This document shows positions 30,749 to 34,945 of a DNA stretch of 64,000 bases, in pieces. How positions within the stretch are numbered: the first letter of the stretch is position 1; every line of letters begins with the position of its first letter. The position numbers and the translations under genes are program-made. Source of the stretch: Myxococcota bacterium (GTDB lineage: Bacteria > Myxococcota_A > Polyangia > Nannocystales > Nannocystaceae). The notes beneath the pieces were generated by a model. That model did not search any database. It worked only from the letters and a program-made list of their open reading frames with translations, and was not told where the DNA came from. The stretch covers positions 224,001-288,000 of the forward strand of contig JBCCHT010000003.1 of assembly GCA_039028615.1 (NCBI GenBank), in the 5' to 3' direction.

Positions 30749-31078
30749 GGCTCGTCGTTCTTCCTTGGCGCGACACCACCCGTCGCTCCAGCGTCGCAGC
30801 GCACCTCGGGGGGGGGTCGTCCGCGGATCTCGACGTCGGTGGGGTGACTCGAGGTCCGCGGCCGACTCGAGGTCCCGTTTCCCGTGGGGTGGGTCGGGGC
30901 TCGGCGTCTGCGGCTGGCGGGCAGCGTCGTTACGCCAGGTCCTTTCCGCGACTGACCTCGGCATTACATCGGCGCGTGACTTTTTATCGACGTTTTGTCG
31001 CGGTTATGGCTGTGCCTAGAACACTTCGCGGTGCACACGAAGGTGCAGGTGCGACAGGGGATCGGGCGCGATGGCATC

Positions 31079-33877
31079 ATGCGTTCGATGTTCCGCCCCC
31101 TGACTCTCGCCTTGTTCTCGATGCTGTCGTTGGCGTGCAACCGTGGCTCGGATGCTGCGTCCGACGGCGGCAAGCCGACGGCCGAGGTCACCCCCGCGTC
31201 CGCGGCCAAGCTCGTCGGTGCTCCGGCGCCGGCCGTGCCCGAGCCGACGGCCAAGCTACTCGCGGCGGTGGGGGAGGGGGCGCCCGCCGTCGTGGTGCTG
31301 CGCGACGAGGCGATCGCGACGCTCAACGAACGCTTGCCGAAGTTGCTGCCCGCGCCTGCGCTGGCCGAGATGGCGGAGCTGACCGGAGCGGTGAACGGGG
31401 TCGACGTACTCGCGAAGCTGGCCGAGACCCTCGACCTGCCCGTACGCAAGGCGGAGCTGAAGGGCCGCGACCCGGCGCGCCCGATCGTGGTGTCGGCGTT
31501 CGAGTCTCCGGTCTCGGGGCCTCCGGGCATGGCGGTGGCGCTCATGCCCGTGGTCGATGGGCACCAGCTGCCGTTGCGTCATCAGGTGGTGCTGCCCGCC
31601 AAGGACGTGACCGCGCTGCTCGGGAGCATGCGGGCGTGGCTGCCCGCCGAGGACACGATCGAGCGCCCCGAGCTGGTCAAAGGCCTCGAAGGCGCGGTCG
31701 GGCTCGAGCTGAAGCGACGCTGGCCGCTGCAGACCTTCATCGCGCTGGTGCCAGAAGACGGACACCTGCGGGTGGTGCTGCTGCACGAGGGCCGGGGAAT
31801 CGACAGCGCATCGGAGCTTCGGTCCCTGGTCGATGTGAAGGTCGGTGACCTTAGCGACACCCCGGCCCTGCGCCATGCGGGACGCGACGAGCATGCGCTC
31901 GCGGTGCTGGTGCGGCCGTGGCATCTGCGGTCGCTCGGGGTCTGGACGGGGCTCAACCAGACGATGCTGGCGGTGGACACCGTCGGCCCCGATCAGCGCT
32001 GGATGGCGATGACGCGCGGGACGGCGATCACGGCCACGGCCGAGGTCTTGAGCCCCGACGACCAGGCGGAGTTCGACGACTGGTCTTTCGCGATGTCGGC
32101 CGACGCCGACTCCCTGCGCCTGACCAGCGTCGCCAGCCTCACCCCCACCGGGCGGAAGATCTGGGACGCCGCCGCCACGAAGCCGGTCGCCGCGCCCCGG
32201 CTTCGCAAAGAGGTCGATGCCTCGCTCACCGTCGCGCTGGACATCGCGGCCGCGCTGGGCGAAGCGAAGGGGCACACCCTGCGGGAGGGATCGTTGGGAG
32301 ACCTGGCGCGGACCTTCCAGAACTGCGGCGTGACCTGCCCGATGTTCAGCGCGCTGCGTTGGCCGGCCTCTGCGGTACGGACCCTCGCCCCAGAGGTCAG
32401 CAGGACGGGCACCGGGGTCGCGAGCGCACAGCTGGTGATGCCCTCCTCGAGCGAGCCGGCTCGGGTCGCGGTCGCACTGGTCGGCGATGACCTGCCCGCC
32501 GCCGAGGTACTGAAAGGGGCAGTCGGAGTGCTGGCGCGCCCGGGTGCGGCCGCCAAAGTCGAGGAAGGAACGCACGCGGGGCATCCGGCCTTGTTGGTCG
32601 GCAACGGCATCGAGCCCGCCACCATCTTCGAGCTGGGCGCCGAGTCGCCCGAGCCTCCGGCGCTGCTGCGGGCGCAGGGGCGCCTGCCCGCGGAGCTCGG
32701 GGGCGGCTCGCTCCGCTCCGCCATGCACCGAGCTGGCCCCGCGCTGACCTTCGAGTTGGTGTTCGGCCCCGGCAAGCTCCGTTCGTTGCTCGACTACTCG
32801 GCGGCGACCTGGGACTCGCCGCTGGGATCGGGAGAGGCCACCAAGGCCAGTCGCTGTCTGCACGAGCTGGCGTGGGTTCTCGTGGACGACGTCAACTCCA
32901 TCGCGATGGTGGCGGTCGACCAGCGGGCCACCACGGCCGTGACCGCGGCCGGCAAGATCGGGCCTCTGGTCACCTGTGCCGCCGAAGACCCCCAGCTCGC
33001 AGAGGCGGCACGAGGCTTGGCCTCGCTGATGACCGCGACGATGGCCGGGGCCTTGCTCGAGGTCCCCGACTACCGCGCGGCTCGGGCGGTGTTGCAGACG
33101 GGGTGCCCCGAAGGACGCTCCGACGGGCCCGCGTGCGAGCGACTCGCCGCCATGGCCGATGTCGCGATCCCCACGCTGCAGCAATTCTCGGTGCCCGAGC
33201 AGTGCCGCCCCGAGTACGACCCCGGCTTCGGTATGCCCGTGGTGGTCAACAGCGACGGAATCTTCATCGCGGGGCGCAAGGTCGCCGCCTCGAGCTCGGC
33301 CATTGCGGCGGCGGTGGTCGAGCAGATGAGCATGGACGGACGCAGTGAGAAGGTCGGGTCCACGCTCGCCCTGTGGGTCGAAGGGTCGTTGCCGTTTTCC
33401 GTGGTCGAACCCGTCGTCGCGGCGGCGGCGAGCCTGGACTCCGAGCTGGGGGCGGTGATCAACGACGAGTCCGGTAAGGCGATGCGCGTCGGGTGGGCGC
33501 GAGAGTGGCCGAAGACGGTGAGCATCGACTGGAAGGTCGACCCGACCTACGTGCCCGAAAAACGCTTCGGTGGCGGGCTCTATGACCCCGAGGAGCGAGC
33601 GCCCGGCTCTACCGGGCCCAAGGTGTCGCACACCCTGCTGCAGACCCGCGGCGGCTTGGTGGTGGTGCCTCCCGGGGGAACGACGCTGGCCGTGCCCAAC
33701 TCGTCGGCGCTGTCCGCCTATGTCGACGCGGAGCAATCCGCGGCCGGGCCGGGGCGGACGGTGCAGCTGACGTGGAAGGTCGCGCCCGATGTGCCCTGGA
33801 GCGAAGTGGCCGAGGTGCTCACGCAAACCTGCACCATTTTCGGTGCGGTGGTGCAGACTCCCGCGGGCACTCCATGA
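31079..33877 (+). CDS. Large hypothetical lipoprotein, possible ExbD/TolR-like segments at the C-terminus
   Basis: Lipobox LSLAC; long GC3-biased ORF; LPFSVVEPVV and APDVPWSEVAEVL resemble ExbD periplasmic motifs (weak). Confidence 0.75.
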   Translation: MRSMFRPLTLALFSMLSLACNRGSDAASDGGKPTAEVTPASAAKLVGAPAPAVPEPTAKLLAAVGEGAPAVVVLRDEAIATLNERLPKLLPAPALAEMAELTGAVNGVDVLAKLAETLDLPVRKAELKGRDPARPIVVSAFESPVSGPPGMAVALMPVVDGHQLPLRHQVVLPAKDVTALLGSMRAWLPAEDTIERPELVKGLEGAVGLELKRRWPLQTFIALVPEDGHLRVVLLHEGRGIDSASELRSLVDVKVGDLSDTPALRHAGRDEHALAVLVRPWHLRSLGVWTGLNQTMLAVDTVGPDQRWMAMTRGTAITATAEVLSPDDQAEFDDWSFAMSADADSLRLTSVASLTPTGRKIWDAAATKPVAAPRLRKEVDASLTVALDIAAALGEAKGHTLREGSLGDLARTFQNCGVTCPMFSALRWPASAVRTLAPEVSRTGTGVASAQLVMPSSSEPARVAVALVGDDLPAAEVLKGAVGVLARPGAAAKVEEGTHAGHPALLVGNGIEPATIFELGAESPEPPALLRAQGRLPAELGGGSLRSAMHRAGPALTFELVFGPGKLRSLLDYSAATWDSPLGSGEATKASRCLHELAWVLVDDVNSIAMVAVDQRATTAVTAAGKIGPLVTCAAEDPQLAEAARGLASLMTATMAGALLEVPDYRAARAVLQTGCPEGRSDGPACERLAAMADVAIPTLQQFSVPEQCRPEYDPGFGMPVVVNSDGIFIAGRKVAASSSAIAAAVVEQMSMDGRSEKVGSTLALWVEGSLPFSVVEPVVAAAASLDSELGAVINDESGKAMRVGWAREWPKTVSIDWKVDPTYVPEKRFGGGLYDPEERAPGSTGPKVSHTLLQTRGGLVVVPPGGTTLAVPNSSALSAYVDAEQSAAGPGRTVQLTWKVAPDVPWSEVAEVLTQTCTIFGAVVQTPAGTP

Positions 33878-33983
33878 CGCGGTGACTCATCGTCGCGCCT
33901 TCGGGCCCGATGCACTCGGTCGGCGATCATGAACAGGTCGCGGGCGCACGAGTCGTCGGGCTCGATTATTTTCGGCTTCGCAT

Positions 33984-34011
33984 TTGACAAACCAATCCCA
34001 TTGCGTAAGTT
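33984..34011 (+). promoter_or_regulatory. Sigma70-type promoter of the leader-peptide/tRNA operon
   Basis: Consensus TTGACA (33984-33989), 16-bp spacer, TAAGTT (34006-34011) in an AT-rich patch. Confidence 0.75.
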
Positions 34012-34031
34012 GGCTCGACAGGAAGACGACA

Positions 34032-34145
34032 ATGGTTGCCCACGAGTCCCTCGCCCACGTTTTCGAGTTCTGTCACGCCACGGCGTACGACAGTTCGTCT
34101 TCGTATGCGTACGTGCTCGGCAGTCGATCGTCATCTCGCTGCTAG
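34032..34145 (+). CDS. Putative Ser/Tyr-rich leader peptide, 37 aa (MVAHESLAHVFEFCHATAYDSSSSYAYVLGSRSSSRC)
   Basis: AGGAAG SD at 34020-34025, ATG 34032, TAG 34143-34145; 9 Ser and 3 Tyr codons; lies between the promoter and the Ser/Tyr tRNA array; below the ORF-track size cutoff. Confidence 0.72.
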   Translation: MVAHESLAHVFEFCHATAYDSSSSYAYVLGSRSSSRC

Positions 34146-34182
34146 AGCACGTCGTGCACGACGGCCACGGGCCGTTTCGTTC
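34111..34182 (+). promoter_or_regulatory. Putative transcription attenuator (mutually exclusive hairpins)
   Basis: Hairpin A 34111-34152 (ACGTGCTC-GGCAG...CTGCT-A-GAGCACGT); hairpin B 34150-34163 (CGTCG-TGCA-CGACG); terminator-like hairpin C 34160-34176 (GACGGCC-ACG-GGCCGTT) running into TTTCGTT. Confidence 0.55.
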
Positions 34183-34279
34183 GCGTCCCCGCCACGGGTG
34201 ACGTAGCCGGACTCGTTCGCGCTGCGCCCGATGGGTCGTCGGTCGTCGAGCGGGCCTCGTCGTGCCCAAAAACCAAAGA

Positions 34280-34363
34280 GGAGGGGTGGCCGAGTGGTAA
34301 GGCAGCGGCTTGCTACGCCGTCGTCTGGTAATGCCAGCGTGGGTTCGACTCCCACCCCCTCCG
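34280..34363 (+). tRNA. tRNA-Ser(GCT)
   Basis: Acceptor GGAGGGG/CCCCTCC, G73; anticodon arm GCGGC-TTGCTAC-GCCGT; long variable arm; GTGGG-TTCGACT-CCCAC; CCA not encoded. Confidence 0.93.
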
Positions 34364-34369
34364 CTCCAT

Positions 34370-34456
34370 GGAAGGTTGGCCGAGCGGTAAGGCACTCGCT
34401 TGGAAAGCGACGGTCCGGTCGAGAGATCGGCGGGGGTTCGACTCCCTCACCTTCCG
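34370..34456 (+). tRNA. tRNA-Ser(GGA)
   Basis: Acceptor GGAAGGT/ACCTTCC, G73; TCGC-TTGGAAA-GCGA; long variable arm; TTCGACT loop; followed by CC only. Confidence 0.92.
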
Positions 34457-34458
34457 CC

Positions 34459-34541
34459 GGAGGGTTCGGCATTGGCAGGCCAAGCCGCCTTGAACGCGGT
34501 GGGTCCTTCGGGGCCTGGGGGTTCGACTCCCTCACCCTCCG
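34459..34541 (+). tRNA. tRNA-Ser(TGA), atypical D-arm
   Basis: Acceptor GGAGGGT/ACCCTCC, G73; GCCGC-CTTGAAC-GCGGT; variable arm with TTCG loop; TTCGACT loop. Confidence 0.88.
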
Positions 34542-34550
34542 CCCTCATCG

Positions 34551-34636
34551 GGAAGGAATGTCATTTGGTTTGACGCGCAGTTTCGAAAACTGTCGGGGTA
34601 CTGCCCCAGGGGGTTCGATTCCCTCTCCTTCCGCCA
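34551..34636 (+). tRNA. tRNA-Ser(CGA), atypical (A at position 8)
   Basis: Acceptor GGAAGGA/TCCTTCC, G73, CCA; D-stem GTCA/TGAC; GCAGT-TTCGAAA-ACTGT; variable arm GGGG/CCCC; TTCGATT loop. Confidence 0.88.
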
Positions 34637-34637
34637 C

Positions 34638-34723
34638 CCGCGGGACGCCCATTCGGTAGGGCAGCGGACTGTAAATCCGTGGCGCTTTGGCGCATGCAGG
34701 TTCGAATCCTGCCCCGCGGACCA
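34638..34723 (+). tRNA. tRNA-Tyr(GTA) with C1-G72 and a long variable arm
   Basis: Acceptor CCGCGGG/CCCGCGG, A73, CCA; D-stem GCCC/GGGC; GCGGA-CTGTAAA-TCCGT; variable arm GCGC-TTTG-GCGC; GCAGG-TTCGAAT-CCTGC. Confidence 0.92.
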
Positions 34724-34759: not shown

Positions 34760-34945
34760 GGGTCGTGAGCACGCGGAGGCGGCCGAGTCGACGGGGCTCG
34801 GTCGTCTCCGCCCGCTGGCTGCGTACGAGCAGCATCGCGCCCACGCTCCGGCCGGCGATGCGGGCGTAGGCCTGCTCCCACTCATCGAGCGCGTCGGCGA
34901 ATTGGCCGACGCAGTAGGCGGCCTCGCCCTCCCGGTAGGGGCGCG
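34760..34945 (-). pseudogene. Possible remnant of a TPR-type gene
   Basis: Minus frame reads YREGEAAYCVGQFADALDEWEQAY (TPR-like) but has an in-frame TGA just upstream and no start codon; boundaries approximate. Confidence 0.35.

Follow-up and report, generated by a model that had tools for sequence, protein, structure and literature searches.

A codon-matched leader ORF before a redundant Ser4-Tyr tRNA operon in a Nannocystaceae bacterium: a candidate for leader-peptide attenuation of tRNA genes

Background

The matching of tRNA supply to demand is usually ascribed to global promoter control. Regulatory leaders that read the charging state of tRNAs are known from other settings: besides the trp and his attenuators, pheM-pheST is a further classical leader-peptide attenuator, and T-box riboswitches in rare cases precede tRNA genes. 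In the genome of a Myxococcota bacterium of the family Nannocystaceae (G000), a cluster of four tRNA genes for serine and one for tyrosine lies behind a short open reading frame (ORF) that is rich in serine and tyrosine codons. Second, housekeeping copies of all five tRNAs (Ser GCT, GGA, TGA and CGA, and Tyr GTA) are encoded on other contigs, and the Ser4-Tyr block is therefore redundant. This locus raises the question of whether ribosomes translating the ORF decide on the expression of the spare tRNA genes, and by which means.

We propose that leader-peptide attenuation is applied here to tRNA genes, a reading to which we give a probability of about 0.6. The Ser/Tyr-rich leader ORF would serve as a test track for the ribosome in front of the redundant operon. 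A fast-reading ribosome would leave a U-poor terminator hairpin, located in the spacer, free to halt transcription. A ribosome that stalls when working seryl- or tyrosyl-tRNA runs short would cause the RNA to refold, so that the spare tRNAs would be transcribed. Amino-acid starvation, or the loss of housekeeping tRNAs to nucleases, may act as the trigger. If this is true, each tRNA family would be under direct feedback, with the ribosome reporting a shortage of the operon's own tRNA. The parts of this proposal differ in strength: the leader ORF is very probably translated, we are confident that stalling controls the operon, and we lean towards intrinsic termination as the output. The main feature of interest is the bank of codon-matched tRNA operons of which this locus is one member.

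Results and discussion

The leader region and its ORF

The leader region lies between a 960-codon ORF (30995-33877), for whose product no Pfam match was found at E<=1e-5, and five tRNA genes at 34280-34723 (Table 1). A T-rich-tailed, terminator-like hairpin at 33949-33972 ends the upstream gene, just 5' of the leader promoter. A strict consensus promoter scan listed nothing at 33984..34011, where we place a putative sigma70-like promoter; a like site is also present 5' of homologous leaders. At the Rfam gathering score, the 64-kb window (the whole stretch of 64,000 nucleotides that was analysed) gave RF00005 (tRNA) alone, and the T-box model was without a match. Two of the tRNA genes, tRNA-Ser(TGA) and tRNA-Ser(CGA) (34458-34636), are divergent enough to miss this list.

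Table 1. Features of the leader region and the Ser4-Tyr tRNA operon (positions in the window)
Feature	Position	Strand	Basis
Sigma70-like promoter, TTGACA, 16 nt, TAAGTT	33984..34011	+	sequence; putative function
Putative ribosome-binding site AGGAAG, purine-rich	34020..34025	+	sequence; putative function
Leader ORF, 37 aa	34032..34145	+	codon enrichment, conservation
Hairpin A, 1:2-like, spans stop codon	34111..34152 (to ~34101-34161)	+	folding, shuffles
Hairpin B, weak candidate antiterminator	34150..34163	+	folding, -4.9 kcal/mol
Candidate terminator 1: hairpin C core 34162-34174 + tail TTTCGTTCG 34175-34183	34162..34183	+	folding
Small hairpin E, between C and D	34184..34203	+	-10.1 kcal/mol
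Candidate terminator 2: long imperfect hairpin D 34206-34256 + tail TCGTCGTGC 34257-34265	34206..34265	+	folding
tRNA-Ser(GCT)	34280..34364	+	tRNA gene search + Rfam
tRNA-Ser(GGA)	34370..34458	+	tRNA gene search + Rfam
tRNA-Ser(TGA)	34458..34544	+	tRNA gene search; absent at Rfam gathering score
tRNA-Ser(CGA)	34551..34636	+	tRNA gene search; absent at Rfam gathering score
tRNA-Tyr(GTA)	34638..34723	+	tRNA gene search + Rfam
17-bp hairpin at the operon end, towards the convergent gene; putative terminator	34773..34811	+	-35.7 kcal/mol

From its ATG to its TAG the leader ORF encodes 37 residues, including 9 Ser and 3 Tyr, and 11 of these 12 lie in the 3' half. The codons used (AGT, TCC/TCT, TCA, TCG and TAC/TAT) cover all five downstream tRNAs. 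Ser and Tyr account for 12 of 36 leader codons, compared to 2.8 expected from the proteins of this genome (P=1.1e-5). A preliminary description of the locus had recognised a leader peptide upstream of the tRNAs, and this is borne out, as the peptide is codon-matched, conserved and part of a genome-wide set.

A bank of leader-bearing tRNA blocks

Seven further blocks of G000 carry a leader, namely Thr/Phe/Asn/Lys, Asp/His, Ser/Ala/Trp/Cys/Val/Ile, Met/Phe, Arg/Leu, Cys/Gln and Pro, and block size ranges from two to seven tRNA genes. Cognate codons are enriched in these leaders with P values from 9e-7 to 1e-2, except in the Pro leader, where they are not (P=0.2). Together the eight leaders are matched to 19 amino acids, Glu and Gly being missing, or to 18 distinct tRNA families with Ser counted once. 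The true pairing of leaders with the eight blocks ranks best, 1 of 40,320 permutations.

A codon-blind rule, which takes the best promoter-like site and then the first start, was applied to all 60 tRNA loci of G000. It recovers the eight leaders, whose -10 box lies 225-388 nt from the tRNA. At 17 other loci the -10 box is 10-113 nt from the tRNA and there is no such ORF; in the remainder the rule leads to non-matching ORFs (2 loci) or finds no site above the score cut-off (33 loci). The genes flanking leader-bearing blocks showed no common protein theme. A queuine tRNA-ribosyltransferase gene (L135:6022-7116, G000:C43) separates the Met/Phe and Arg/Leu accessory blocks.

Leaders in relatives and metagenomes

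A query made of leader plus cluster was matched in 19 of the 73 family genomes (E<=1e-12); since kin share ancestry, counts in relatives overstate independence. The ORF is kept in relatives with its start, frame and regulatory codons (16 Ser-type leaders, 33-40 aa), and Ser is preserved across TCN/AGY switches. A leader pattern searched in GTDB gave eight matches, two of them chance-like and six of them leaders, including those of Paraliomyxa miuraensis, a cultured species with the same leader, and of a Nannocystaceae record. With a pattern for the accessory tRNA-Ser, 16 metagenome matches were obtained, corresponding to four new Ser/Tyr-type leaders, one duplicate, seven loci of a second type (see below) and four loci in which no leader was found; the same pattern had no match in viral contigs. 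The Ser/Ala/Trp/Cys/Val/Ile block was found in none of five genomes (40 candidates scored per genome).

From 70 clusters we retained 52 leaders, the start being chosen by hand in six of them (L050, L060, L078, L119, L120 and L121). The 18 clusters left out were truncated, housekeeping-like, second in a locus, or unclear (L008, L102 and L108). Enrichment in cognate codons at P<0.01, relative to G000 frequencies, was found for 44 of the 52 leaders, and in relatives the leader codons track the tRNA set. Among Ser-led blocks, Tyr occurs within the last 24 codons in 12/12 that include a Tyr tRNA and in 1/13 that do not, the lone case being L114, which is cut at the locus edge. Arrays of Pro/Leu/Tyr tRNA genes carry Leu/Pro/Tyr leaders. 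Rare codons are preferred in leaders, with AGT making up 20 of 124 Ser codons (vs 2.9%) and TAT 21 of 39 (vs 16%).

The motif at the leader end was also searched without regard to tRNAs. Among the 22 matches, 14 are followed by tRNAs and eight have no start codon or tRNA. The 14 comprise eight known leaders and six new ones, four of which are enriched at P<0.005, one is not and one was unscored.

At L053, L054 and L055 up to 14 Pro/Leu/Tyr tRNA genes stand behind GTG-started leaders rich in Leu/Pro/Tyr. At L103 and L105 the Pro tRNA genes lie directly 3' of an ORF whose end seems EF-Tu-like, with no leader of their own.

Hairpins of the spacer and their conservation

Hairpin A was confirmed (-22.8 kcal/mol) and spans, as had been described, the final run of Ser codons together with the stop codon (34143-34145). 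Extended to ~34101-34161 it reaches -31.8 kcal/mol, and 3 of 1000 dinucleotide shuffles are as stable. It is a plausible 1:2 helix over the regulatory codons. In 8 of 15 anchored homologues the two sides of the stop can form its core, which is without a double change. When the segment after the stop was shuffled, its energy stood out at 3/100 or better in only 5 of 16 Ser-type leaders. The motif GCAC lies at most 22 nt from the stop in 11 of 16 Ser-type leaders (background 12%). RNAalifold did not recover A on a MAFFT alignment of 9 of the 16 Ser-type leaders, because its 3' arm is out of register. Two sister families show covariation in a helix that begins at the stop codon: in five Cys/Gln leaders it has 8 bp (95% paired, three double changes, 8/500 shuffles), and in 11 of 12 Cys-stop-type leaders it has 19 pairs, four of them with double changes.

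The preliminary description drew two further hairpins and a distal helix as mutually exclusive partners downstream of A. All three are present in the sequence. Hairpin B shares 3 nt with A and merely 2 nt with the core of C. Hairpin C, drawn at 34160-34176, has -10.0 kcal/mol (-7.0 kcal/mol for its G-C core at 34162-34174); the TTTCGTT said to follow it starts at 34175, inside that span, so that its first two T had been counted twice. The 8-bp complement between 34156-34163 and 34258-34265 (-13.0 kcal/mol) is at the level expected by chance, as an 8-nt perfect inverted repeat occurs in 406 of 1000 shuffles of 34111-34265. The folding z-score of the whole leader is -1.7. As conserved elements B and C did not hold: of 16 Ser-type leaders, the window itself is the one in which the sequence of C with its tail is found, together with a 5-bp hairpin that has the geometry of B. 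In four Cys/Gln leaders, folded as single sequences, the arms of competing hairpins differ yet stay complementary. No universal spacer motif stood out across the leaders.

A consensus terminator scan did not list hairpin C, and no canonical U-tract terminator was found in the spacer. Hairpin D (-22 to -25 kcal/mol) is stronger than C and, with its TCGTCGTG tail, is a rival candidate terminator. L099 and L101 have its tail TCGTCGTGC as well, at a distance of 23-24 nt from the first tRNA. Whether the terminating hairpin here would be C, acting through B, or rather D or both in series is a matter of roughly even odds. Leader codons 4-6 (~34043-34050) complement the 5' arm of D (~34209-34216) over 8 nt and open D in footprint-only folds.

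Predicted effect of ribosome position

According to the preliminary description, a ribosome stalled on Ser/Tyr codons would favour B over C. When the folded RNA extended to 34183 or 34200, the predicted formation of B was at most 0.02 and that of C at least 0.79 at every ribosome position. In the attenuation model, as given in the accessible part of PMC1183508, some 8 bases of the transcript cannot yet take part in folding, and the folds were therefore repeated with the RNA ended at 34174, tail excluded. In these folds B reached 0.26-0.87 at Ser23-Tyr25 under most masks, with values near 0.5 at Arg32 or Ser33. C fell to a minimum of 0.61 when the whole 5' RNA was masked, and to 0.09-0.31 when the mask was limited to the footprint. 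The predicted rise of B and fall of C on stalling thus appears with the shorter RNA and disappears at 34183 or 34200. The claim that C is permitted when no ribosome is present, or when it stands at the stop, agrees with the predictions for the RNA ended at 34174 (B 0.00, C 0.96-0.98). A ribosome at Ser35 or Arg36 likewise raises B, with C still at 0.78, and strict exclusion of B and C is not supported, a shortened B coexisting with C. Under one mask, hairpin D was predicted at 0.89 with the ribosome at the stop and at as little as 0.18 with the ribosome at Ser24 and Arg36; under the other it was open at stall and stop alike. The predicted B/C switch thus depends on the RNA end chosen and on the ribosome mask.

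Across the leaders, switch-like dips were about equally common with poor tails (53/93) and good tails (18/25), and a second comparison of switching gave 7/350 for poor-tail controls vs 8/226 (P=0.29). A good-tail hairpin closed at the stop was predicted in 7 of 16 Ser-type spacers, five of which open on stalling, and the other 9/16 are without a terminator candidate; such a hairpin was predicted in 3 of 5 Cys/Gln spacers, and all three open on stalling, the effect being clearer in these leaders. The direction of predicted folding fits attenuation; the effect is partial, of uncertain size and not specific against controls. The classical 1:2/2:3/3:4 logic suggested for this locus is probably right in principle; the B-over-C switch drawn for it is weakly predicted, is not conserved and may at best be regarded as possible on these models.

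Terminator style in a family without detectable Rho

No match to Rho was found in G000 with TIGR00767, and a search of 73 family genomes for the Rho RNA-binding domain PF07497 gave no match (controls positive in 9/14). The available text of PMC11347177 names a Myxococcota species without Rho, Haliangium ochraceum, and does not mention Nannocystaceae. In G000, strong perfect hairpins (filtered at -16 kcal/mol and assumed to be terminators) occur at 626/3937 gene ends vs 65/3937 coding sites. At least 5 T in 8 nt were counted in 150 of the 626 gene-end tails, and the commonest tail 4-mer is TCGT (138/626 vs 4/65 coding-site tails). A tail model trained on convergent genes, with their long imperfect stems, lacked sharpness and was set aside.

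The U-tract of hairpin C had been called short and interrupted, which is correct in that it is not canonical. As a weakness the point carries less weight than it seemed to: with no Rho found and gene-end tails that are U-poor and rich in TCGT, the tail TTTCGTT is normal for this genome, and it scores at the 82nd percentile of the 626 tails. The stem of C is far weaker than the gene-end hairpins of this genome, which were filtered at -16 kcal/mol. Among 47 spacers, five have at least 5 T in 8 nt, and of the 16 Ser-type spacers the window alone does. Spacer tails score higher in sense than in antisense orientation in 30 of 45 and higher than shuffles in 29 of 45, a weak signal.

The U-poor gene-end tails, dominated by TCGT/TTCG, in a family without detectable Rho are a candidate for a lineage-specific terminator style. 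A U-poor, UCGU-rich style in a GC-rich family would be missed by standard terminator finders.

Comparison with known systems

The classical trp and his attenuators, as covered by the accessible part of PMC1183508, likewise have a short ORF with cognate codons and a 1:2-like helix over these codons. Overlapping downstream hairpins and a candidate terminator before the controlled genes are also shared. Unlike in the classical attenuators, tRNAs rather than enzymes are controlled here, one design is used at eight blocks, the tails are U-poor, and the 2:3 and 3:4 hairpins are not conserved between homologues. As the canonical U-tract test failed and the evidence for an antiterminator is partial, we do not class the locus as a plain classical attenuator. 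T-box riboswitches (RF00230) are similar in that the charging of a cognate tRNA is sensed through a codon in the leader RNA; here, unlike in T-boxes, the translating ribosome would do the sensing, over many codons.

In function the closest counterpart is the Anabaena trn operon (L-array) with TrcR, likewise a supernumerary tRNA set beside the housekeeping set, which the accessible portions of PMC8421152 and PMC10272220 propose to be inducible under translation stress. According to the same portions, the Anabaena set is one array of 26 genes under a DNA-binding repressor, whereas here small scattered blocks have their own codon-matched ORFs; with blocks of this size, the long-array feature of the L-array type is absent. 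The terms 'leader', 'attenuat' and 'T-box' have 0 occurrences in the main text of PMC8421152. No description of leader-peptide control of tRNA genes was found in the literature, as judged from titles and the beginnings of abstracts, subscription papers being mostly outside this coverage.

Alternative readings and a second type of locus

The same facts may be read in other ways. The sensor might be the peptide or the terminating ribosome, acting as an arrest peptide or a general gauge of translation stress that the cognate codons merely tune. Many leaders indeed end in Cys-stop within a conserved helix, and the N-termini MKR, MNR and MER recur between operons. Base pairing accounts for the Cys-stop motif, however, Ser-type leaders end in various residues, and the C-terminal codons vary with the tRNA set on one scaffold, which makes a peptide sensor improbable. 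Rho-dependent attenuation, in which the ribosome would hide or expose a loading site, could account for a spacer without a canonical U-tract terminator; it is largely refuted by the absence of a Rho match in G000 and the 73 family genomes, and by spacers that fold strongly and have no consistent C-over-G bias. Just as implausible is that ORF and hairpins arose by chance in GC-rich DNA, the tRNA operon behind them being constitutive. That B, C and the distal helix each lie within chance, together with the modest z-score of the whole leader, would suit such a reading, which is contradicted by the permutation, conservation and blind-rule results.

The output deserves more attention, in view of seven metagenome loci (L111, L116, L117, L119, L120, L121 and L123) with Arg-Ser-Ser-Gly clusters, Gly/Arg/Ser leaders and 54-61% GC. 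Their spacers, 31-36 nt long, are complementary to the 5' strand of the tRNA and show no conserved U tail. In 7/7 loci the Ser codons of the leader form an 11-bp helix with tRNA-Arg, the first tRNA, at its 3' end and trailer (77/77 cells paired, three pairs changed on both sides, 6/500 shuffles), this helix having been selected on the same alignment that was used for counting and each double change being a single cell. No second-type locus was found in 401 sampled genomes of the phylum (two candidates scored each, no positive control). The same sensor might thus have a post-transcriptional output, the position of the ribosome deciding the fate of the precursor, either folding into tRNAs that can be processed or trapping and degradation. 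A ribosome on the Ser codons would free the tRNA from the 11-bp helix, and the short spacers without a conserved U tail, the scarcity of T-rich tails among all spacers and the lack of a terminator candidate in over half of the Ser-type ones point the same way. Against this output stand the manner in which the helix was selected and counted, and the complementarity between spacer and first-tRNA 5' strand, which was rejected as a general rule because it is at chance level over all 52 leaders (mean z 0.0; window z -0.8). We regard a precursor-folding output as rather unlikely, and prefer attenuation of transcription by a stalled ribosome for the Ser4-Tyr operon. Tentatively, and with more doubt than belief, a wider picture may be drawn in which a Rho-less family runs a near-complete back-up tRNA bank via stalling at cognate codons, and at least one lineage switches precursor-tRNA folding instead of transcription.

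Two minor observations concern serine tRNAs. At second-type loci the segment before tRNA-Ser(GCT) can pair with the 5' strand of that tRNA. In G000, two tRNA-like sequences of 73 nt (G000:C27:171191-171263 and 172144-172216, L041) carry the Ser anticodons GGA and CGA without the long variable arm.
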